Origin: Candidatus Saccharimonadota bacterium
GTDB taxonomy: Bacteria; Patescibacteriota; Saccharimonadia; CAILAD01; BJGX01
Direction of reading: 5' to 3'
Length of the DNA stretch: 55,169 nucleotides
Assembly: GCA_035329105.1 (NCBI GenBank)
Contig: DAOLHK010000001.1
Coordinates: forward strand, 27,955-83,123
The translations under genes and the position numbers were made by a program. The notes below the pieces were generated by a model that worked only from the letters and a program-made list of their open reading frames with translations, did not search any database and had not been told where the DNA came from. The stretch's first letter is position 1, and every line of letters starts with the position of its first letter. Of the stretch, positions 3,752-49,566 are shown piece by piece.

Positions 3752-6004
3752 TTATCCGAAATGTCCGGCGGTTAAATGCTGGAAATACTGGGGTGCTAGA
3801 TCGATTTGAGGGTTTTTGAGTAGGAGTAGTGCTTCGAGCTGCTGTCTGCCTGCAGGACCGGAATTTAATAAATTATTATATGCATTATTACCTATCACAC
3901 CCTTGAGTCTAGCAATAGCTTCCGTGCGCTCTGCACCAGATACAAAGTCTCCTTTTGCAAGCCTGTCAATGAGCTCTGGGTTGTTGATAGATCCATACCG
4001 ATGGTCAGTGTCTGGTCCGGGTGTTGGAGGATTATCAATGGCATTCACCAGCTTGTAGGCGCCTATGGCACCGACTATGCCCGCTAAGGCTGCTCCGGCA
4101 CGTTTGCTCCATCTACGTGTATTGGTTTGTTTTTCTTGAGCTGTAAGTTCTTGACCAATATTTTCTTTTCTTGTCTTGTCTCTATTTGGGTCGCCAGACT
4201 CTTTGAACTTCTGAGACCCTAGGCCGAATTTCTCACTACGGGCGCCTACCATTTCTCCTACACCTCTACTTGCATTGTATGCACCATACATTCCCACAGC
4301 AGTCCTACCTCCGAAACCTAATATTGCTAAGGGGGCTAAACCAGTTACTGTACCCGTGATACCAATACCAGTAAGAGCAAGTCCTGCAACCATTCTAGTC
4401 TTAGGGTGTTTCTTGAGCCATTCATTCATCTTGGCAAGTTTGGGGTGCTCTGCTGTACGTTGACGTAGCATCTCAGCATCCACTCTGGCTCGTACCTTCA
4501 ACAACTCTTCGACTTTGACCTGGTTGAATCTAACCAATTCTTGTTCGAGTAGACTCTCCATATTACGTTGGTAATCAGCTTGTTTAGCTTGATAGTCTAT
4601 CTGTTCTTGTATCTCAGCTGCAAATTGAGCATCTGTGTAATCGCGATATTTTGGATCTCTATCAGCAGGTGCAAGTAATCTTTGGTGGTCTAGAGTTCTT
4701 TGGATAGATTCGGACTGACTCACATAGTCTTTTGATAGCTCGGAATTTTGTAGACCATTTCGCATGTTTTCAACATGCTTTTGTGATAACGCAGCACAAT
4801 AAGCTTCGAAGGCTCGATCCATGTTTTCTTTTTCTCGAGCAAGATTTTCTTTGGCTTCTTTGCCAGCAAACATCTTCTCGGATCTTATTCGTGCTGCCGC
4901 CCATCGCTCAGTGGCTTCATCATAGGCAGCTTGTGCTTCGGTGATATCAGGTATGGGTTCAATTGGACGAGGTTCTGGTTGGGGTTGAGGCTCAGGCTGT
5001 GGTTCGGGCTCAGGCTGTGGTTCGGGCTCGGGCTGTGGTTCGGGCTCGGGCTGTGGTTCGGGCTCGGACGGTTTGATTTTAGTTTTTTGCTCTATAACTG
5101 GTACTTCTATCTTAAAGTCATTCCACTCTTGGCCCTTATCTCTAAGCTTGTCCATTTCTTCCCAACTAGCGCCGCCAGTCTCAAGCCATTCTTTCAAAAC
5201 AGCTTTGTCATATTTTTTTAACAATGCCAAATCTTCACTGATTCTTGCTTTCTCATCAACATCTTCTTTACCTAGAGATGCTCGTTGATCTTTGAGATAA
5301 GTTGTCATGGCAGCAATTTCTACTGGGCTAAGTCTAACTCCTTCTACATGTTCACCTGAAGTATCCAAAAGTGCTAGCCATTGTTCTTCCCTCCATCTAT
5401 CAAGGTGAGTAGCTACAATATCAGGATCATACTTGAGTTCACCTGTCCTGCCAGAAATAACCATCTCATCATGAAGAAGTGGCTTTTCTTTACGGCGCAA
5501 ATCTTTGAGTCTTTCCCAAGATGCTGCCATCTCTTCTTTGACTTGCTCTGGAGTAAGAGTTTCGAGCGCTACAGCTGCTGACCTTTCAGGCTTCGCAGGT
5601 GTTGGCTCTGTAGTTGAGGCCAAATCTGTTTCTAATATGCCCAAATAAGCTTCAAGGGACCTAGTGGAAAGCCCTTTAGCTCTACCTTCTTCGATGTCTT
5701 TTTTTACTCCGTCGATTTTGCCTTTTATTTCGGATCTCTTATCGGCTCTCTCAAGACCTGCTTCTGTATCTGTGGTTTCGGGAGTAGCAGTGGCAGGTTC
5801 TGGTGTTTCGGCGCTTGGCGTGGGAGGTGCTGCAGGTTCACCCGTGGTGTTTGAAGCTGCAGTAGGTGTAGATGGCTCTCTTGTACCAGTACCTGGTGGT
5901 GGTTCGGGTGGGGCCATTAGTCTGGCTGCTACCTCTTCTGGTGTAGGTGGATCGAATGATTCTGCTGAACTTCCACCTGGAGTCGTCTCTACACTATCTG
6001 CCAT
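3752..6004 (-). CDS. Large membrane-anchored hypothetical protein (750 aa) with low-complexity N-terminus and PEPEPQ repeats
   Basis: P/T/E-rich N-terminus, a (PEPEPQ)n tract and a long charged coiled-coil-like middle. Gly-rich hydrophobic segments (MVAGLALTGIGITGTVTGLAPLAILGFGG; AGAALAGIVGAIGAY). About 100-aa C-terminal domain. AAGGA SD upstream. Confidence 0.75.
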   Translation of the reverse strand: MADSVETTPGGSSAESFDPPTPEEVAARLMAPPEPPPGTGTREPSTPTAASNTTGEPAAPPTPSAETPEPATATPETTDTEAGLERADKRSEIKGKIDGVKKDIEEGRAKGLSTRSLEAYLGILETDLASTTEPTPAKPERSAAVALETLTPEQVKEEMAASWERLKDLRRKEKPLLHDEMVISGRTGELKYDPDIVATHLDRWREEQWLALLDTSGEHVEGVRLSPVEIAAMTTYLKDQRASLGKEDVDEKARISEDLALLKKYDKAVLKEWLETGGASWEEMDKLRDKGQEWNDFKIEVPVIEQKTKIKPSEPEPQPEPEPQPEPEPQPEPEPQPEPQPQPEPRPIEPIPDITEAQAAYDEATERWAAARIRSEKMFAGKEAKENLAREKENMDRAFEAYCAALSQKHVENMRNGLQNSELSKDYVSQSESIQRTLDHQRLLAPADRDPKYRDYTDAQFAAEIQEQIDYQAKQADYQRNMESLLEQELVRFNQVKVEELLKVRARVDAEMLRQRTAEHPKLAKMNEWLKKHPKTRMVAGLALTGIGITGTVTGLAPLAILGFGGRTAVGMYGAYNASRGVGEMVGARSEKFGLGSQKFKESGDPNRDKTRKENIGQELTAQEKQTNTRRWSKRAGAALAGIVGAIGAYKLVNAIDNPPTPGPDTDHRYGSINNPELIDRLAKGDFVSGAERTEAIARLKGVIGNNAYNNLLNSGPAGRQQLEALLLLKNPQIDLAPQYFQHLTAGHFG
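4991..5062. repeat. Four tandem 18-bp repeats (CTCRGGCTGTGGTTCGGG) inside the 750-aa CDS
   Basis: Read directly: units at 4991-5008, 5009-5026, 5027-5044 and 5045-5062, with degenerate copies flanking (4971-4990, 5063-5068). They encode PEPEPQ repeats on the minus strand. Confidence 0.9.
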
Positions 6005-22323: not shown

Positions 22324-24111
22324 TTAGCCGACCATATCAAGTTTCTTGAGCTTGGCCTTACCTACTGCTGTCTTGCTGATATTTTGCAGATCAAGTAGCT
22401 CTTTGTATATACCAGTCTTGCGTTTGGCGAGTTCTTGTGGAGAACCTATCTCCACGACTTGACCGTTTTTGATACCAACTATAGTATCTACACCTGAAAT
22501 AGTACTAAGTCGGTGAGCGATGATCATAGTAGTACGATTTGCCATCAGTCTTTCTAGTGCACCTTGTACCTCATGCTCGGCTTTGCTATCTAAACTGCTG
22601 GTAGCTTCGTCGAGGATCAGTATAGGAGGATTTTTCATGATGGCTCGAGCAATAGCTATACGTTGCTTTTGTCCTCCACTAAGCTTCACACCTCTCTCAC
22701 CTATCTCAGTATCAAATCCCTTGGGTAGTTTCTTGATAAAATCATAGGCATTGGCAGCTTTGGCAGCGGAAATTAGTTGTTTCTCGGTGGGCTTCTTGGA
22801 GCCATAGCCGATATTGTCTTTTACAGTACCGGAAAACAATTGTGGCTCCTGGAATACTACACCTATACTAGACCTCAAGCTTTCTTGAGTCACGCTATCT
22901 ACTGACTGACCATCTATCAGGATCTGACCTGCATTTAGCTCATAAAATCGCAACATTAGATTGGCAAGTGTGCTCTTACCTTCACCCGATTCTCCTACCA
23001 AAGCTAGCTTTTTACCTGGGTCTATCGTAAAGCTCACGTTTTTGAGTACATTTTTGCCTTTTTCATAAGCAAATCCAACATTTTGGTATTCTACCCTCGA
23101 ATTACGTATTTTGAGGGGTTTTGCACCTTCTTTGTCTACAATATCGGCTTTGGTGTCCATAATCTCAAAATAGTCTTTACTGCCTGCTGTTGCACGCTGT
23201 AAGGCATCTATGATGAAACTACTACCGAATAACGGGAATTGAGCCTGAACAGATAGAGTCAGCAGTAGAGTCATAGTACCTAGGTTGTAGACCCCAATAT
23301 ATGCCTGATAAATTATTACTCCCATAATAGCTGTAAATATAATGTTCAAAACAAGCCTGCGATAGACATCGTACTTGTGCCACTGCACTGATTGAACCTT
23401 GGTTTGGCTTTCTATCTTGATTCGTTTGTTGCCATAAAACATTCGTTCTGATGCTTCCATCACAAATGATTTGACTACTCTTACTTGCACAATTGATTCA
23501 ACAAAGCGACCATTGCCGATGTCGAGGTCTTTGTTGATTCCCTCCTGGTGCTTTTGCCAACTCTTACTGCTCAAGTGAGTTATCCAGATATATATTGGGA
23601 ATATCGCTGCTAGTAATAGTGCTACTGGCCAGCTGTAAAAAGCTATGACCACTAGAGTAATCACAGTAGTCAAGAAAAACTGCACAAACCCATTGGCTAG
23701 AGTCTGCATCAGTGTAGAAATAGTAGCGATTGAACGATCAAGACGAGCCGTAATCTTACCTGTTATCTCATTGTCATAATAGCTAATTGGTAACTTCATG
23801 AGATGTTCAAAATAGCGATTTGACATCAAGGTATTGAGCTTGACACTCATCATATCACCCCAATAACCGCTTAGATTTGACAGTAGGGTCAATACAATTG
23901 ATGCAATACCACCTAGTGCTACCAATCCAAATAAATACTGCAAACCAGGTGAATTGCCATTATTTGCCGCTACAATACCGTCTACTAACCCCTTGGTAAC
24001 AAATGGCGTTACTAGATTCAGGCCAGATGTAATAACAACAACTATCGCTATAGCTGTATAGTAAGGCCACAAAACCTTGGAATACTTTATAATCTTCCAG
24101 ATTGCTTTCAT
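22324..24111 (-). CDS. ABC exporter, fused permease/ATPase (ABCB/MsbA-like)
   Basis: 595 aa. Six-TM domain plus NBD with Walker A GESGEGKST, signature LSGGQKQRIAIARA and Walker B ILILDEATS. Confidence 0.92.
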   Translation of the reverse strand: MKAIWKIIKYSKVLWPYYTAIAIVVVITSGLNLVTPFVTKGLVDGIVAANNGNSPGLQYLFGLVALGGIASIVLTLLSNLSGYWGDMMSVKLNTLMSNRYFEHLMKLPISYYDNEITGKITARLDRSIATISTLMQTLANGFVQFFLTTVITLVVIAFYSWPVALLLAAIFPIYIWITHLSSKSWQKHQEGINKDLDIGNGRFVESIVQVRVVKSFVMEASERMFYGNKRIKIESQTKVQSVQWHKYDVYRRLVLNIIFTAIMGVIIYQAYIGVYNLGTMTLLLTLSVQAQFPLFGSSFIIDALQRATAGSKDYFEIMDTKADIVDKEGAKPLKIRNSRVEYQNVGFAYEKGKNVLKNVSFTIDPGKKLALVGESGEGKSTLANLMLRFYELNAGQILIDGQSVDSVTQESLRSSIGVVFQEPQLFSGTVKDNIGYGSKKPTEKQLISAAKAANAYDFIKKLPKGFDTEIGERGVKLSGGQKQRIAIARAIMKNPPILILDEATSSLDSKAEHEVQGALERLMANRTTMIIAHRLSTISGVDTIVGIKNGQVVEIGSPQELAKRKTGIYKELLDLQNISKTAVGKAKLKKLDMVG

Positions 24112-24155
24112 TTAATCTCAGTTTAGCATGTGTCGAAAATTAAAACGAGCCCACC

Positions 24156-24181
24156 GGCCAGACCCCCGCAGGGGTCTGGCC
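24156..24181 (-). terminator. GC-rich stem-loop (11-bp stem, 4-nt loop) at the edge of the GC-rich micro-island
   Basis: GGCCAGACCCC (24156-24166) pairs with GGGGTCTGGCC (24171-24181). On the minus strand a GTTTTAATTTT tract follows about 10 nt later. Confidence 0.55.
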
Positions 24182-24200
24182 AATGAGCCGTGTCGAGGCA

Positions 24201-24240
24201 TCGAACGTATGTGTGTCAGCCGTAGCTTACATACGTTCGA
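24201..24240 (-). other. Perfect 12-bp inverted repeat with 16-nt loop
   Basis: TCGAACGTATGT (24201-24212) pairs with ACATACGTTCGA (24229-24240). It lies between the 41-codon ORF and the GC-rich terminator-like hairpin. Confidence 0.5.
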
Positions 24241-24302
24241 GTACTGCTGTCGGGGCTTCAGCCGTGAGGCTTAGGCCGGTGTTGGTGTGTGACGGGTGAG
24301 CG

Positions 24303-24428
24303 TCAGGTGCAGAGCTGGTCGGTGGGCTCGCCGGCGGCCGTGATGGTCGAGCCCTTCTCGAACAGCCGGTTCGAGGTGTCGGGCGCGGTGGTCTCGGTGT
24401 GGTACCTCGTGAACCAGGTCTGGCGCAT
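24303..24428 (-). CDS. 41-aa ORF with actinobacterial-style codon usage (MRQTWFTRYHTETTAPDTSNRLFEKGSTITAAGEPTDQLCT)
   Basis: All 41 sense codons end in G or C (counted). AAGGGGGG SD 4 nt upstream of the ATG. Too short for the ORF track. The tracked 77-aa frame (24227..24460) is R/P-rich and looks off-frame. It could be a gene fragment. Confidence 0.5.
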   Translation of the reverse strand: MRQTWFTRYHTETTAPDTSNRLFEKGSTITAAGEPTDQLCT

Positions 24429-24488
24429 GGTGCCCCCCTTGGGGTGGTTGTGTTTGCCATACCTCAGCAGTTGCTGTAGGTTATATAC

Positions 24489-24516
24489 ATTATAATCCTA
24501 GTGTTTTGAGTGTCAA
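24489..24516 (-). promoter_or_regulatory. Near-consensus sigma70-type promoter reading into the GC-rich micro-island
   Basis: Minus strand reads TTGACA (24516-24511), a 16-nt spacer, then TATAAT (24494-24489). It lies in AT-rich DNA about 60 nt upstream of the 41-codon ORF. Confidence 0.5.
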
Positions 24517-24597
24517 AAGTTATTTATAGATTTTATTTCGACCATAAAAATAGCTCTTTTATAGCATTGGCTAGGCTACAAAAGAGCTGGTATTACC

Positions 24598-28100: not shown

Positions 28101-28397
28101 TTATTGTTCAAGAGGGAAGGGTTTTTGTACTCGTAGTACAATGTCTTCGAAAAGATCTGGGTTTATCTTATATCGACTATAGATACGATTGGGATGTCGC
28201 TTGCGATGTAAAAATCCCAAGCGAAAGAGTCTCTCGCACGACTTGCTTACTTTGTAGATATCGCTTGTCATAGCAACATGACTCTTACCCTCAAATGATG
28301 GGTCTGAAGTAATTTCTACAGGCGAATTGGATTTGAGACGGTCACGAATCATGTACTCCAATACTTGATCGTCTAGCTTTCGTAGTCTACGCCTCAT
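28101..28397 (-). CDS. Small basic protein, possible winged-helix DNA-binding protein, 98 aa
   Basis: GGGAGA SD. The segment IYKVSKSCERLFRLGFLHRKRHPNRIYSRY resembles a recognition helix plus wing. First gene of a bicistron with 27780..28076 (24-nt gap). Confidence 0.55.
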   Translation of the reverse strand: MRRRLRKLDDQVLEYMIRDRLKSNSPVEITSDPSFEGKSHVAMTSDIYKVSKSCERLFRLGFLHRKRHPNRIYSRYKINPDLFEDIVLRVQKPFPLEQ

Positions 28398-45531: not shown

Positions 45532-47358
45532 CTATTTACGCTTACGCTTGTTTGGATCGAGCTCTTTTTTACGTAGTCGCAGAGATTTTGGTGTGACCTC
45601 CAAGAGTTCATCATCTTCAATAAAATCTATACATTCTTCTAGGCTCATCTTGACCGGTGGCATGAGTTGTACGATACCATCACTAGAGCTAGTACGCATA
45701 TTGGTAAGTTGCTTGCCCTTGCAGACATTGATCTCCATGTCTTCGGATCTGTTATTGAGCCCGATGATTTGGCCTGCGTAGACCTTGACATTCGGCTCTA
45801 CAAAACAAACTCCACGTTCCTCAGCCTTTTGCAGTGAGTAAGCAGTGGTAGTGCCAGTCTCAAATGCTATAAGTGCACCGCTGCGTAACTGTTTGAGTGC
45901 GCTACCTTGTTCTTGGTAGCCTATCATCAGGCTGTTGATCACAGCCGCACCCTTGGTGCTCGTCATCAGTACACTACGCAATCCTAGAAGCGCTCGTGTA
46001 GGCAACTCATAGACCAACTTTGTCACACCCTTTGATGTACTGAACTGCTCATTGAGCGTAGCTCGGCGCGTCCCCAGCTCCATTTGAACGGCTCCGACAT
46101 GCTCAGGAGGCACTTCTATACTTAGCTCCTCTAGTGGCTCTAATGTCTTGTCGCCATCTTGCTTGGTCACGACTTGTGGACGGCCAACTTCTAGCTCATA
46201 GCCCTCTCGCCTAAGTGATTCTATGAGTACACTCAAGTGCAATTCGCCTCTACCACTCACCAAGAACCCTATGTCGCTTGCTTCTACCTGCAATCCGACG
46301 TTGGTTTCGAGCTCTTTTTGTAATCTATTACCAATTTGACGTGATGTAGTGAATTCGCCTTCTGTACCTTTTACGGGGCTAGTATTGGGACCGATATAAA
46401 TTTTAAGAGTTGGAGCTTCTACTTCCAAAACCGGCATGGCCTCGGGATTATTTACATCAGCAATAGTTTCACCAATTTGTGCATCAGCGACACCAGTAAG
46501 CTGCACAATATCGCCAGCAATAGCCGATTTTGCCTCGATAGTAGTTAGTCCTCTACTAATAAAAACATTGTCTATGCTGGTTTTGGTTTGAGTGCCATCT
46601 TTTTTACATAACATTATAGTATCACCTGGTTTAACTTGGCCACGATTTACTCTTCCAATAGCATACTTACCCTTGTAGTTATCCCAGCGCAGTGCTGTCA
46701 CAAGCATCTGAAAATCACCACCTAGTTCTACATCTGGAGCTGGAATATTATCTATAATTGCCTTGAATAAAACGTCTAAATTGCTATCTAAATTCATGTC
46801 AGCTGGCATTTGCGACCAAGCTTTGCCCTCACGGCTTATTGCGTAATAGACGGGGTAATGCAACTGATCTTCGTGCACGGCTAGCTCAAGGAATAAATCC
46901 GCAAGTTCATCTTCTACTTCAGCAACTCGACTACCTGACTTGTCTATCTTATTAATCACCACAATTGGTTTGAGCCCACCAATAAGAGCCTTTTGCAATA
47001 CAAATTTAGTTTGTGGCATCGGGCCTTCTTGGGCATCTACTATCAACAGACATCCGTCAGCCATATTGAGGGTGCGCTCTACCTCGCCGCTAAAGTCTGC
47101 GTGTCCTGGGGTATCGATAATGTTTATGCGGTAGTCATTATAATTTACGGCCGTGGTTTTGGCTGTGATAGTAATACCACGCTCACGCTCTTGATCGCCA
47201 CTATCCATTATTAAGCTTTGGCTCATCTCGGCTTGGTTATCTCTAAATGTCTGAGATTGCTTAAGTAGCCCATCTACCAGGGTAGTCTTGCCATGGTCTA
47301 CGTGAGCGATAATAGCGATATTGCGTATTTTGGTGGGGTCTTGGGTTTGGTCTGACAT
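45532..47358 (-). CDS. typA: Translational GTPase TypA/BipA
   Basis: 608 aa from MSDQTQDPTKIRNIAIIAHVDHGKTTLVD. The tracked start at 47469 adds 37 non-conserved residues. Confidence 0.95.
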   Translation of the reverse strand: MSDQTQDPTKIRNIAIIAHVDHGKTTLVDGLLKQSQTFRDNQAEMSQSLIMDSGDQERERGITITAKTTAVNYNDYRINIIDTPGHADFSGEVERTLNMADGCLLIVDAQEGPMPQTKFVLQKALIGGLKPIVVINKIDKSGSRVAEVEDELADLFLELAVHEDQLHYPVYYAISREGKAWSQMPADMNLDSNLDVLFKAIIDNIPAPDVELGGDFQMLVTALRWDNYKGKYAIGRVNRGQVKPGDTIMLCKKDGTQTKTSIDNVFISRGLTTIEAKSAIAGDIVQLTGVADAQIGETIADVNNPEAMPVLEVEAPTLKIYIGPNTSPVKGTEGEFTTSRQIGNRLQKELETNVGLQVEASDIGFLVSGRGELHLSVLIESLRREGYELEVGRPQVVTKQDGDKTLEPLEELSIEVPPEHVGAVQMELGTRRATLNEQFSTSKGVTKLVYELPTRALLGLRSVLMTSTKGAAVINSLMIGYQEQGSALKQLRSGALIAFETGTTTAYSLQKAEERGVCFVEPNVKVYAGQIIGLNNRSEDMEINVCKGKQLTNMRTSSSDGIVQLMPPVKMSLEECIDFIEDDELLEVTPKSLRLRKKELDPNKRKRK

Positions 47359-47472
47359 AAAGTCCTTCTGATCTTTTGAGTAAAAAATAATAGCGCTTAG
47401 CAACTGTAAATGCTCTCGCGCTACATATTCTTTCACTATAGCATCATATAAGATAAAACACAAGCACATATA

Positions 47473-47501
47473 TTGACATAATTAATGTTTAATGTTAATA
47501 T
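47473..47501 (+). promoter_or_regulatory. Candidate promoter of the GC-rich orphan 47573..47911
   Basis: TTGACA (47473-47478), a 17-nt spacer, then TAATAT (47496-47501). Confidence 0.5.
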
Positions 47502-47572
47502 AGTTTCAATTCCTGCATGGATGTGCAGGTGGCTCACGAGATAGTGAGTATCAGAGCAAGGAGATGAGACGG

Positions 47573-47911
47573 ATGTCTTATCATCACGCAGTTGAAATCA
47601 CCAACGGACCGTCGCTACATGACATGAATGGCTCGGTCATGTACGGGCCCAAGATGAGGCCAGTATCTCTCCGCCTTCACTACACCCACACGGGTGAAGG
47701 CGAGGAGCTAAAGGGCTGGGTCGAGGCAATGGTGCTTACCAGGCCTGTTGCCGATCGTTGTCGGTGGTTCATCCGCTTCAGGATCGCTCAAGAACGTGGT
47801 GACTTAGGGCCGCGCTACCGGCACTTCTACTACGACTCGTACAACCGCGAGGGGTTCGAGCTGCCAGACGATCACCCGATGTGCCTGCTCGAGCAGTTCC
47901 TCTACTGCTGA
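47573..47911 (+). CDS. Orphan hypothetical protein (112 aa) in ~57-60% GC DNA
   Basis: AAGGAG lies 9 nt upstream of the ATG at 47573, whereas the tracked ATG at 47564 abuts the SD. One 60-nt line (47641-47700) counts 36 G+C. No family recognised. Confidence 0.6.
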   Translation: MSYHHAVEITNGPSLHDMNGSVMYGPKMRPVSLRLHYTHTGEGEELKGWVEAMVLTRPVADRCRWFIRFRIAQERGDLGPRYRHFYYDSYNREGFELPDDHPMCLLEQFLYC

Positions 47912-47991
47912 TATCATCAGCCGCCCGCCGGGAGCGTTATCTCGGTGCATCACCCAAGTCTATAATATTATTGTAGATTTAGGTATTTGCA
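47912..47991 (+). repeat. Copy B of the ~75-nt 3' module shared with 22249..22323
   Basis: TCATCAGCCGCCCGCCGG (47914-47931), GCATCACCCAAG (47947-47958) and TTGTAGATTTAGGT (47971-47984). Imperfect stem ACCCAAGTCTA/TAGATTTAGGT. It fills the gap between two converging stop codons. Confidence 0.45.
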
Positions 47992-49566
47992 CTAAAACAA
48001 TGACTGTTGCTCAAACGACTTATTACTGGCTGGTAAGCCTATAGCATTTCCCTGCAAAACTTCACCCCTAGTCAGAGCTATTAAGAATTCAAAGATACGC
48101 ACCATGGCATAGGTATCAAGCTCACAGTATTGTCGAAGACTCTCCATTAGCTTGGCCTTCTCAGCTTCACTATTCTTGTCAGTATAGACAGCCTCCATCC
48201 ATAGCCTTTGAGCGGTAGCTCCCTCAGATATGTCCATATCCTTGTAGCTTAGTTCTGGTGCTAATACTGGCAGTACATTCTTGATGCTTGCCGACCCCAT
48301 GAAGTCCTTGTCTACATAGTGACCATTCTTGAACGGCAACATCAGGTCCAATACTCTGTCATTGACTTGAGCCAAAAATACAGCATAGTCAGGTTGCAGT
48401 TCTGCCATGAGATTATTACAAGTTTTCTCAAATCCCTCATACCACACTAGTACGCTTCCCTTGTCACCAATATCACTTTGCAATTGTGCAAGTAGCTCTG
48501 GTACTGGATTGGTATCGAGCGTATGTAAGAATTCTCGATGCTCTAGATCAGCATCTAGGCTCTTAAGTATGTGTAATGAATACTGAAAAGGTAGTTGTTG
48601 GTATGGTTTCAGACCATCAAAAGGCGGAACTATAGAGGATAGTGTCTCATAGTCTAGAAAATATATAGGATATTCTAGCTTATCTATAAACTTAGCTATT
48701 TTGCCAGTATCTACTAGCGGCTCACCTAGCCTGGTAGCTTCAATCTGTCGTTTCTGTACGGGCTTGAGCTCGAATGTATCTGGGATATCGACAATCGAAC
48801 TAATATGCATATCCTCAAGATTCCCAATCTGCTCGGGTGTAACTTGTGCCAAACTATAGATAGAATACTTATCGTCTGTAGGCTTGATACTCAATAAGAT
48901 ATCAATCCACTCTTTATATCCACCAAGTTTGACTCGCCTAGGAGTAGGATCCGGCATCGACTCAAGTCCTATCGTATTGATCGCTGCTACAATATTACGT
49001 CTAGTTGATTCTAATTTGGATTTGACTTGTATGGTTACATCTTCTTTGCAAGTCATTTGCTTAGCATCAATTTCACCATGACGCACGTAGCTATTGTTGC
49101 AATATATCACTGATATATTTCTTACCTTATAGCCAGCTCCTTCTAATACAATTACCTGAAATGCCAAATCCTCAATATGATCAGGCTTGACCTTGGTGCT
49201 AGACTTGATCTCATATAAATCGAAAGTATTTTCTTCCACCAACTCGATCACATCCACTATACAAGTGATGCTATATCTATCTATATCAGCTTCAAATCTT
49301 CCTTGAGTCAGCACCTTGGCTCCGTCCGCCAAAGCTTTCTTGGTCCTATCAGGCATCGAGAGATACTCATTGTAGTTTTCAAACCCTACTCTGACTATGT
49401 CGCTAAATAATTCTTCAGCATACTTTTCAAATAAGTTACCGGCATCAAACATAGCTTGCAAGTTGGCATCTGGTTCGGGAAGCTTCTTCTTGTCATGTCG
49501 TTTGAGCCATAGCCAAGCAGGATGCTTCAAGAACATCATATATTCTGATTTGCTCAAGGTAATCAT
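47992..49566 (-). CDS. DUF2779-like protein (putative nuclease-fold protein)
   Basis: 524 aa. N-terminal LSKSEYMMFLKHPAWLWLK matches my recollection of the DUF2779 start. Assignment unverified. Confidence 0.6.
   Translation of the reverse strand: MITLSKSEYMMFLKHPAWLWLKRHDKKKLPEPDANLQAMFDAGNLFEKYAEELFSDIVRVGFENYNEYLSMPDRTKKALADGAKVLTQGRFEADIDRYSITCIVDVIELVEENTFDLYEIKSSTKVKPDHIEDLAFQVIVLEGAGYKVRNISVIYCNNSYVRHGEIDAKQMTCKEDVTIQVKSKLESTRRNIVAAINTIGLESMPDPTPRRVKLGGYKEWIDILLSIKPTDDKYSIYSLAQVTPEQIGNLEDMHISSIVDIPDTFELKPVQKRQIEATRLGEPLVDTGKIAKFIDKLEYPIYFLDYETLSSIVPPFDGLKPYQQLPFQYSLHILKSLDADLEHREFLHTLDTNPVPELLAQLQSDIGDKGSVLVWYEGFEKTCNNLMAELQPDYAVFLAQVNDRVLDLMLPFKNGHYVDKDFMGSASIKNVLPVLAPELSYKDMDISEGATAQRLWMEAVYTDKNSEAEKAKLMESLRQYCELDTYAMVRIFEFLIALTRGEVLQGNAIGLPASNKSFEQQSLF

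Follow-up and report, generated by a model that had tools for sequence, protein, structure and literature searches.

The window analysed here is a stretch of 55,169 nucleotides (nt) from a Candidatus Saccharimonadota bacterium (GenBank assembly GCA_035329105.1, contig DAOLHK010000001.1, positions 27,955 to 83,123 of the forward strand), and all coordinates given without a locus name refer to it. The object of this study is a short segment rich in G and C (GC-rich) which lies between typA and a DUF2779 gene and contains a single gene, orf112. Its coding sequence (CDS; 47573..47911, + strand) has 112 codons and encodes an orphan protein, P0001, predicted to be soluble and to adopt an alpha+beta structure. 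A Shine-Dalgarno (SD) sequence, AAGGAG (47558..47563, +), is found 9 nt before the ATG at 47573 and is kept in all loci. An alternative in-frame ATG at 47564, from which a mechanical list of open reading frames (ORFs) begins, touches the SD; all homologues start at the MS(S/Y) position and not there. Upstream of the gene is a sigma-70-type promoter (47473..47501, +), with a -35 box TTGACA at 47473-47478, a 17-nt spacer including a TG, and a -10 box TAATAT at 47496-47501. A consensus scan scored it as a 10/12 match with an extended -10 TG. Such a match alone is at chance level (1 seen versus 1.3 expected in shuffled sequences); the geometry -35/17 nt/-10/6 nt/AATTCC is preserved in all eight divergent loci compared. 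Both flanking genes are on the opposite strand and were confirmed with Pfam: typA/BipA (45532..47358, -; GTP_EFTU and BipA_C domains) is divergent from orf112, and the DUF2779 gene (47992..49566, -; PF11074, E = 8e-39) is convergent with it.

The GC content of the orf112 CDS is 0.569 and the highest 300-nt value is 0.59, against a median of ~0.41 for the window. At third codon positions (GC3) it reaches 0.708, versus 0.370±0.029 (maximum 0.44) in 23 backbone genes (z = 11.6), and the choice of codons is shifted relative to the backbone for Arg, Leu, Pro, Thr and Val. An earlier note made from the letters alone (the sequence-only reading) had described a 112-codon ORF of ~57-60% GC with non-resident codon usage, placed behind TTGACA-N17-TAATAT and an AAGGAG SD, between the start of typA and the stop of a DUF2779-like gene and opposed to both; all of these elements read as claimed. 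There is no tRNA in the window, no flanking direct repeat was found around the orf112 site, and precomputed Pfam lists show no integrase, transposase or recombinase domain in the neighbours within ±10 kb.

The predicted transcript begins at AATTCC with a 5' leader of ~65 nt (47508..47572, +) that occurs once in the window; RNA contig ends, described below, agree with this position. The leader, which reads AATTCCTGCATGGATGTGCAGGTGGC-[hairpin]-GTATCAGAGCAAGGAG, is nearly invariant in loci whose proteins are 33-50% identical, and so is the 75-nt trailer. Between loci, identity is 78-94% in the leader, 75-92% in the trailer and 58-93% in the CDS; over the initial 360 nt of typA, most lineages match each other at 80-85%. 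Two hairpins are predicted in the leader. P1 (CCTGCAT/GTGCAGG; 47512..47529, +) has 7 bp and starts 4 nt from the predicted 5' end; in eight sequences 100% of its cells are paired, with wobble-compatible changes only, and RNAfold predicts it in most loci. P2 (GCTCAC/GTGAGT; 47532..47549, +) is supported by covariation, with compensatory double changes in three pairs and a covariation score reached by 0/500 shuffles. Over the whole leader, 95% of cells pair, versus 22-56% in slid controls.

Three further hairpins are predicted in the trailer: H1 (GCTGA...TCAGC; 47907..47921, +) spans the stop codon, has 94% of its cells paired and shows one compensatory change (G-C to A-U, in locus L048); H2 (CGCCGGGA/TCTCGGTG, loop GCGTTA; 47926..47947, +) is paired in 100% of cells and near-invariant in six loci; and H3 (CACCCAAGTCTA...TAGATTTAGGT; 47951..47985, +), also predicted by RNAfold, has 92% of cells paired with two compensatory pairs. 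Since most trailer pairs never vary, support from covariation is weaker here (94.6% of cells pair, three compensatory pairs, score reached by 40/500 shuffles). The end of H3 lies 6 nt short of the DUF2779 stop codon, and this hairpin is presumed to act as a terminator or 3' stabiliser common to the two convergent genes; a canonical U-tract terminator was not found at the orf112 3' end. The entire 483-nt transcript folds 3.2 standard deviations better than shuffled sequences (z = -3.2). The sequence-only reading had taken the trailer for copy B of a 3' module shared within the window. This was not borne out: a repeat search, blastn-short of 47400-48000 and hairpin patterns allowing 3 mismatches returned only the element itself, so that no part of 47912-47991 has a second copy in the window. 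It is across orthologous loci of other strains that the 3' element is nearly invariant.

The idea that the GC island owes its composition to a known RNA gene was considered and rejected, as Rfam (gathering threshold and E-value) and ARAGORN found nothing. Rfam gave 0 matches in the whole window at the gathering threshold, and the sub-threshold hits in 47440-48010 were only a miRNA and a snoRNA, both at chance level. A scan for the leader in JGI metagenomes and IMG/VR gave zero matches, collections which evidently lack this organism. An 11-nt identity, ACGAGATAGTG, between the orf112 leader and that of another GC-rich island of the window (island 1, see below) is likewise at chance level (E = 6.3), and there is no hairpin at the latter position.

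RNA contigs lie on 47513-47894 in five metatranscriptomes (runs X4, X6, X7, X8 and X9) and two cDNA libraries (X2 and X3), that is, in seven RNA runs. In the runs covering orf112, typA and DUF2779 are almost without RNA coverage; many AT-rich genes of the window do give RNA contigs in these same runs. The evidence consists of assembled, unstranded contigs, and depth is a crude measure. Two contigs, from X2 and X3, begin at 47513 and a third, from X6, at 47523, 5-15 nt past the start predicted from the promoter (47508). The view that orf112 carries its own resident-type promoter and is expressed is supported by these data. By lying close to the 5' end and at the 3' end, the hairpins would shield the mRNA from 5'-end-dependent and 3' exonucleolytic decay and raise its steady-state level; we consider them most likely to be mRNA stabilisers. 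Stabilisation by 5' stem-loops is an established principle, known from the leaders of Escherichia coli ompA and Bacillus subtilis ermC and aprE. The orf112 leader resembles these in that P1 begins ~4 nt into the predicted transcript, a second hairpin, P2, is backed by covariation and RNA levels are relatively high; it differs in that its start is deduced from promoter geometry and RNA contig ends.

The origin of the DNA was also analysed. Its DUF2779 flank has 29 relatives in GTDB species representatives, nearly all in metagenome-assembled genomes of Candidatus Saccharibacteria or other Patescibacteria, the closest being 76% identical. The stretch was found in runs on activated sludge and wastewater that come from numerous studies (2016-2025), and the exact 112-amino acid (aa) protein is present in 101 index blocks of the assembly collection. 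It is a Candidatus Saccharibacteria from activated sludge that carries the stretch. Saccharibacteria live as obligate epibionts on high-GC Actinobacteria, and few of the genes mediating this lifestyle are known. The sequence-only reading had proposed that the junctions be validated with reads and expression data be sought; besides the RNA contigs described above, gene order was the same up to 10 kb on each side in 10 independent assemblies (MEGAHIT, SPAdes, Logan), and both junctions were spanned by contigs of four sludge DNA runs with even depth and no joint. An assembly chimera is therefore excluded.

The orf112 family comprises 12 clusters among 5.8 billion proteins (clustered at 90% identity), with no Pfam domain and no informative name, which agrees with its earlier description as an orphan. 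A HMMER profile search of 1.84 billion representatives added five proteins of 107-115 aa (E from 3e-25 to 2e-8) that have in common the motifs GPS, W[FY][IV][RK] and FYYDS..R.G.EL...HP; residues G12, P13, R83, Y87, G94, L97, H101 and P102 are invariant. Among four close alleles, the ratio of non-synonymous to synonymous substitution rates (dN/dS) is 0.21-0.80, third-position changes dominate and the only length difference is an in-frame codon. Besides the query, P0002, P0003, P0004, P0007, P0011, P0012 and P0014 occupy the typA-DUF2779 site in the same orientation, a count that covers clusters with readable context (P0006, an NCBI-derived relative, was not located). These same-site alleles are 33-86% identical to the window protein and belong to different genomes, since the genes further out differ. 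All of them are GC-rich (GC 0.53-0.60, GC3 0.57-0.74, versus a backbone GC3 of 0.32-0.47). The most divergent member, P0009, sits elsewhere, in a contig of 0.48 GC, and still has a similar leader. Because of this displaced copy and of a p137-like gene (see below) found beyond typA in L046 (2029-2448), the modules can relocate. The P0009 locus (L051 229-720) adjoins glycosyltransferases and retains the AATTCC...GGTGGC-hairpin leader.

None of the nearest GTDB representatives (L015, L016, L017, L018 and L042) has a member of the family. In L015, the same DUF2779-typA interval holds an unrelated GC-rich ORF of 111 aa (1878-2213) in the opposite orientation, L018 has an AT-rich ORF at the site, coding for a membrane-like protein of 133 aa, and typA is inverted in L016, L017 and L042. 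In the L015 segment (1776-2290), the 111-aa ORF comes with a TTGACA promoter of its own, a leader rich in hairpins and a terminator; it has no phage homologue. The comparison of this interval among relatives, which the sequence-only reading had suggested, thus gave a divided answer: the site is indeed variable, as L015, L018 and the typA inversions show, but orthologues hold it across the clade. Homologues 33-46% identical to the window protein, all GC-rich, stand at the same position in relatives, which is part of what that reading had named as speaking against it. Its idea of a fresh insertion in this genome has to be abandoned, because orthologues down to 33% identity share the typA-DUF2779 site in lineages whose typA synonymous sites are saturated. 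What lies there is a fast-evolving accessory gene module, old and shared by a whole clade, in a recombination hotspot.

In most loci orf112 is accompanied by another GC-rich gene, designated p137 (124-137 aa, GC3 0.58-0.82), which is divergent from orf112 and shares with it an intergenic region of ~160 nt. It is present in L013, L014, L044, L048, L049 and L052, and a p137-like gene lies across typA in L046. In the leader of p137, too, there is a hairpin that shows a compensatory change (GATCGAA/TTCGATC versus GATAGAA/TTCTATC). No p137 homologue was found by tblastn anywhere in the 55-kb window, and JGI metagenomes, which evidently lack this organism, gave zero matches. Alignment with L013 places the absence at 47440..47472, where ~600 nt are missing next to 47446; this gap is common to the window strain and L011. 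An A/T polymorphism is observed at 47446, at this junction, with T fixed in X1, X2, X26, X29 and X35 (DNA and RNA runs). A paralogous relationship between orf112 and p137, suggested by a shared ELKGW pentapeptide, was rejected (hhalign probability 0.1%).

Nucleotide identities around the module are mosaic. Between the window and L013, DUF2779 is 96% identical (800 nt), typA 85% and the ORF 87%; between the window and L011, the ORF is 93% and typA 81% identical; and between L011 and L013, typA is 94% identical. Alleles of the two genes are also reassorted: L013 and L048 have p137 genes that are 91% identical and orf112 genes that are 40% identical, whereas in L048 and L044 it is orf112 that is similar (68%) and p137 that is not (26%). 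From this reassortment between lineages, together with the mosaic flanks, it follows that orf112 and p137, each with its untranslated regions (UTRs), act as independently exchangeable modules. We infer that exchange is brought about by homologous recombination, with the conserved DNA of promoter, leader and trailer as its substrate. Natural competence, which would enable it, is documented for Saccharibacteria, as is the integration of DNA through homologous recombination (PMC10633639).

We looked for the source of these GC-rich genes. For orf112, no homologue was found beyond the narrow metagenomic family (5.8 billion clusters, 1.84 billion representatives), and the protein of island 1 had no donor in the 5.8 billion clusters. 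A phage or plasmid origin was tried and dropped: tblastn against 50,697 phages gave no match for orf112, p137 or the L015 ORF, and against 72,556 plasmids none for the island-1 protein, the only one searched there. For p137 the donor search covered phages, family libraries and JGI metagenomes, and for the L015 ORF phages and family libraries. All orf112 clusters with readable context sit in low-GC DNA. Synonymous sites of typA are saturated between carriers (proportion of synonymous differences 0.74-0.81), and a passively and vertically inherited import should therefore already sit at resident GC3.

The direction of substitutions was analysed with outgroup polarisation. Among the window, L011 and L013, 18 orf112 substitutions were GC→AT and 3 AT→GC (12:1 and 6:2 in sub-pairs); at third positions of a second allele group, the ratio ranged from 22:1 to 18:9. 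The corresponding backbone counts were 5:6 in DUF2779 (window versus L013) and 17:27 in typA (Fisher p ~0.001), taken from closer backbone pairs because saturation compromises the outgroup-polarised typA control. At face value, the composition of the genes would not be at equilibrium and their GC would be declining in all lineages, even though their alleles are old. The simplest reconciliation of this loss with saturation of the backbone would be a high-GC ancestry, with alleles that diverged before or outside their present hosts and then spread relatively recently among Saccharibacteria lineages by recombination, AT-biased mutation eroding their GC. A foreign origin of orf112 is plausible on these grounds, with no donor found in the searches. 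The capture of a foreign gene claimed by the sequence-only reading is accordingly retained only in part: the gene is a compositional outlier that appears to lose GC (18:3), but no donor was found and the import would predate this strain. As for the host-like, actinomycetotal source which that reading had proposed, none was found for orf112 or the island-1 gene, and phage searches were also empty.

The protein offers few clues to function. It is soluble (GRAVY hydropathy -0.6, no hydrophobic segment), with an isoelectric point (pI) of 6.4-9.9 across alleles. AlphaFold, given a 13-sequence alignment, predicts a beta1-alpha1-beta2-beta3-beta4-beta5-beta6-alpha2 topology (predicted local distance difference test, pLDDT, 86.8; predicted template modelling score, pTM, 0.79). 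Foldseek found no convincing neighbour for it (PDB best E = 0.43; BFVD best E = 0.022 with a template modelling (TM) score of 0.35; both TM ≤0.4), the best PDB sequence-profile match had E = 0.65, and Pfam, PHROGs, PADLOC and NCBIfam gave nothing. These four libraries and the PDB sequence profiles were equally silent for p137, the island-1 protein and the L015 ORF. A weak match to CBF-beta, obtained with a first model (4 sequences, pLDDT 70, E = 0.13), vanished with the 13-sequence model. Our guess, prompted by the hotspot location, fast evolution, presence or absence of a linked partner, reassortment of alleles and strong expression, is a role in conflict or host interaction, immunity-, antitoxin- or effector-like, possibly with or against p137.

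Taken together, we regard it as somewhat probable that 47473-47985 is a self-contained, monocistronic transcribed module, an exchangeable allele at a hotspot, whose high-GC ancestry is decaying. It would consist, in order, of a resident-type promoter, a 65-nt two-hairpin leader, an SD, the CDS and a 75-nt three-hairpin trailer abutting DUF2779, and would represent one allele of a fast-evolving accessory gene occupying the DUF2779-typA hotspot across a Saccharibacteria clade, usually paired with p137, which the window strain would have lost. Several points weigh against this proposal. When composition is biased, polarisation by parsimony inflates the number of common-to-rare changes, and few changes were available for counting, so that the GC→AT excess is suggestive but not proof; the searches described above returned no donor. 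Conservation of the UTRs could stem partly from recent spread rather than selection. The RNA contigs could hold DNA carry-over or reflect GC bias, and both ends of the transcript are approximate, its start being placed from promoter geometry and contig ends. As to partnership, p137 and orf112 are divergently transcribed and not co-transcribed, and all loci were ascertained through orf112, so that p137 without orf112 would escape notice. The functional guess has no match in PADLOC, Pfam, PDB or Foldseek to lean on.

Of the competing explanations for the composition, the main one is that the family is resident, native to Saccharibacteria or long established there, and that selection holds its GC, for instance for a compact and stable mRNA or for slow or conditional decoding of GC-ending codons. 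Retention of both site and high GC despite saturated synonymous divergence of the backbone would suit it, as would the missing donor, the structured UTRs with their mRNA fold (z = -3.2), and island 1, which is syntenic and still at a GC3 of 0.8 in a relative with a 70% identical product. Stationarity predicts, however, equal numbers of GC→AT and AT→GC changes, and 18:3, 12:1 and 22:1 were observed; ribosomal and other expressed backbone genes are not GC-rich, and a GC3 shift of +0.35 through selection on mRNA stability is without precedent. We hold this explanation to be unlikely, though worth keeping in view. The literal proposal of the sequence-only reading, that a foreign cassette was inserted recently between typA and DUF2779 in this strain alone, is already largely refuted by the comparison of loci: atypical composition and absence of the family from L015, L016, L017, L018 and L042 fit it, but orthologues down to 33% identity share the site in many lineages, neither an integrase or transposase nor a tRNA lies within ±10 kb, direct repeats do not flank the site, and exactly the allele of the window recurs in 101 index blocks, whose samples date from 2016 to 2025; we can hardly credit it. 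We give next to no weight to the idea that the ORF is incidental to a structured non-coding RNA or to an assembly or contamination artefact. RNA genes do often form GC-rich islands in AT-rich genomes, and this region is GC-rich, hairpin-rich and stably folded (z = -3.2), but frame and length are preserved in alleles merely 33% identical, close alleles show an in-frame 3-nt indel and a third-position excess, Rfam has no meaningful match at gathering or at E ≤1, and many independent assemblies span the junctions.

A different question is what orf112 does, and here the alternative is that it is the antidote or immunity partner of p137, orphaned in this strain after loss of p137. The two genes are direct neighbours in five allele groups and form a linked pair on either side of typA in L046, both evolve fast and reassort, orf112 persists alone in the window and in L011, and a dN/dS of 0.80 on the window/L011 branch suggests relaxed constraint. 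On the other hand, the genes are divergent transcription units and form no operon, no toxin-antitoxin or defence model matches either, the reshuffling of alleles speaks against tight co-adaptation, and the loci were sampled through orf112; on balance, we find such a role rather doubtful. A more speculative reading, to which we attach only slight probability, is that the GC-rich modules (orf112, p137, island 1 and the L015 ORF) are host-like as a result of standing exchange with a high-GC actinobacterial host. Modules might be re-supplied from an unsampled reservoir of hosts or mobile elements by natural transformation at landing sites defined by the UTRs, or module DNA or mRNA might be delivered to the host and expressed there, as with transferred-DNA (T-DNA) genes.

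Returning to the exchangeable module with decaying high-GC ancestry that we favour, its closest known counterpart is the horizontally acquired ORFan islet undergoing amelioration, according to the model of Lawrence and Ochman. It has the atypical GC and codon usage bounded sharply by the gene, the orphan family, the patchy distribution among relatives and, at face value, the GC→AT-skewed substitution spectrum of such islets; it is unlike them in having no mobility genes, att sites, tRNA flank or detectable donor, in keeping one site across lineages with a saturated backbone, and in bringing along a strong promoter of resident type as well as UTRs that are structured and conserved. Integron cassettes are also small single-ORF modules swapped at a fixed locus with a hairpin element after the ORF, and other cargo does occupy the same site in L015 and L018. 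However, neither IntI nor a tyrosine recombinase is encoded within ±10 kb, orf112 has its own promoter and leader, the window contains no array and no recurrent attC-like element, and exchange resembles homologous recombination. Since integrase and recurring attC are missing and the promoter is its own, the module is not an integron cassette. Defence or 'conflict' hotspots share with this site core genes on both sides, differing content, fast-evolving proteins, mosaic flanks and reassorted alleles, but the present one is tiny (one or two genes), contains no known defence or anti-defence family and has cargo that is uniformly GC-rich in an AT-rich genome. Toxin-antitoxin and effector-immunity pairs differ in that p137 is missing in the window and divergent elsewhere, and there is no Pfam, PADLOC or NCBIfam match. 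No description of GC-rich orphan islands in Saccharibacteria was found in the literature, and the combination of persistent GC-rich cargo in an epibiont of 41% GC, UTRs that outlast the protein and module-wise reassortment appears undescribed.

The module would point to a small class of GC-rich, promoter-equipped orphan genes in a genome of 41% GC, with transcripts wherever RNA data were readable. Such genes keep their position from species to species while evolving fast and reassorting module-wise, and the RNA structures of their leaders and trailers are better conserved than their proteins. If these are true imports from the world of the host, they would bear witness to repeated transfer from host to epibiont and could help to recognise the hosts of uncultured lineages; if it is selection that keeps their GC, an unusual gene-specific compositional constraint would be at work. 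The module also supplies candidates for interaction or conflict factors, and its natural strong promoter, leader and trailer may be usable for expression in Saccharibacteria, which are now genetically tractable.

The sequence-only reading had counted three cases in the window in which a native-type promoter drives a high-GC ORF. All three GC islands exist and the arrangement is real for two of them; the remaining one, island 2, has no RNA contig. Island 1 (1-1180, -) codes for a protein of 463 aa (pI 4.1, net charge -80) and stands first in a three-gene island that spans ~3.4 kb, with a GC content of 66-67% and GC3 of 0.76-0.84. Its family is an orphan one of 8 clusters. Island 1 is syntenic and still GC-rich in the relative with a 70% identical product (L055 6001-9411). 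Its predicted promoter, TTGACA-N17-TAGACT, fits an RNA contig ending at 1135, and its RNA depth in X7 (60-280) is by far the highest of the window. At 1-113, RNA contigs contain a repeat-number variant with a 31-nt insert, in a region coding for Pro/Glu-rich C-terminal repeats. Island 2 (24101-24540, -) is found in four DNA runs behind a TTGACA/TATAAT match; it gave no RNA contig in four metatranscriptomes and no Rfam match. It comprises a candidate ORF of 41 codons (24303-24428, GC3 0.98) followed by ~180 nt of GC-rich hairpins, and in run X29 six single-nucleotide polymorphisms are clustered at 24430-24459.

Some other features of the window were noted in passing. The typA leader (47376-47425, -; L015 2340-2400; L018 8040-8100) contains TGTAGCGCGAGAGCATTTACA.TTGCTAAGCGCTATTATTTTTTAC, kept across species that are saturated at synonymous sites, and has no Rfam match. 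As it consists of a hairpin followed by a U-run, it resembles a terminator or attenuator placed upstream of the start codon. At 4953-5072 there are at least 5 tandem 18-nt repeats, GGCTCAGGCTGTGGTTCG, which encode a Pro/Glu-rich repeat within an ORF of 750 aa (3752-6004, -); this ORF has no Pfam domain, and an RNA contig from a related strain differs heavily from it at 5631-5793. Finally, the segment 28068-28397 (-), which includes an ORF of 98 aa (28101-28397), reaches an RNA depth of 43 in X7, where the RNA is that of a related strain and differs by 14 mismatches; after island 1, this segment is the second most RNA-covered spot of the window.

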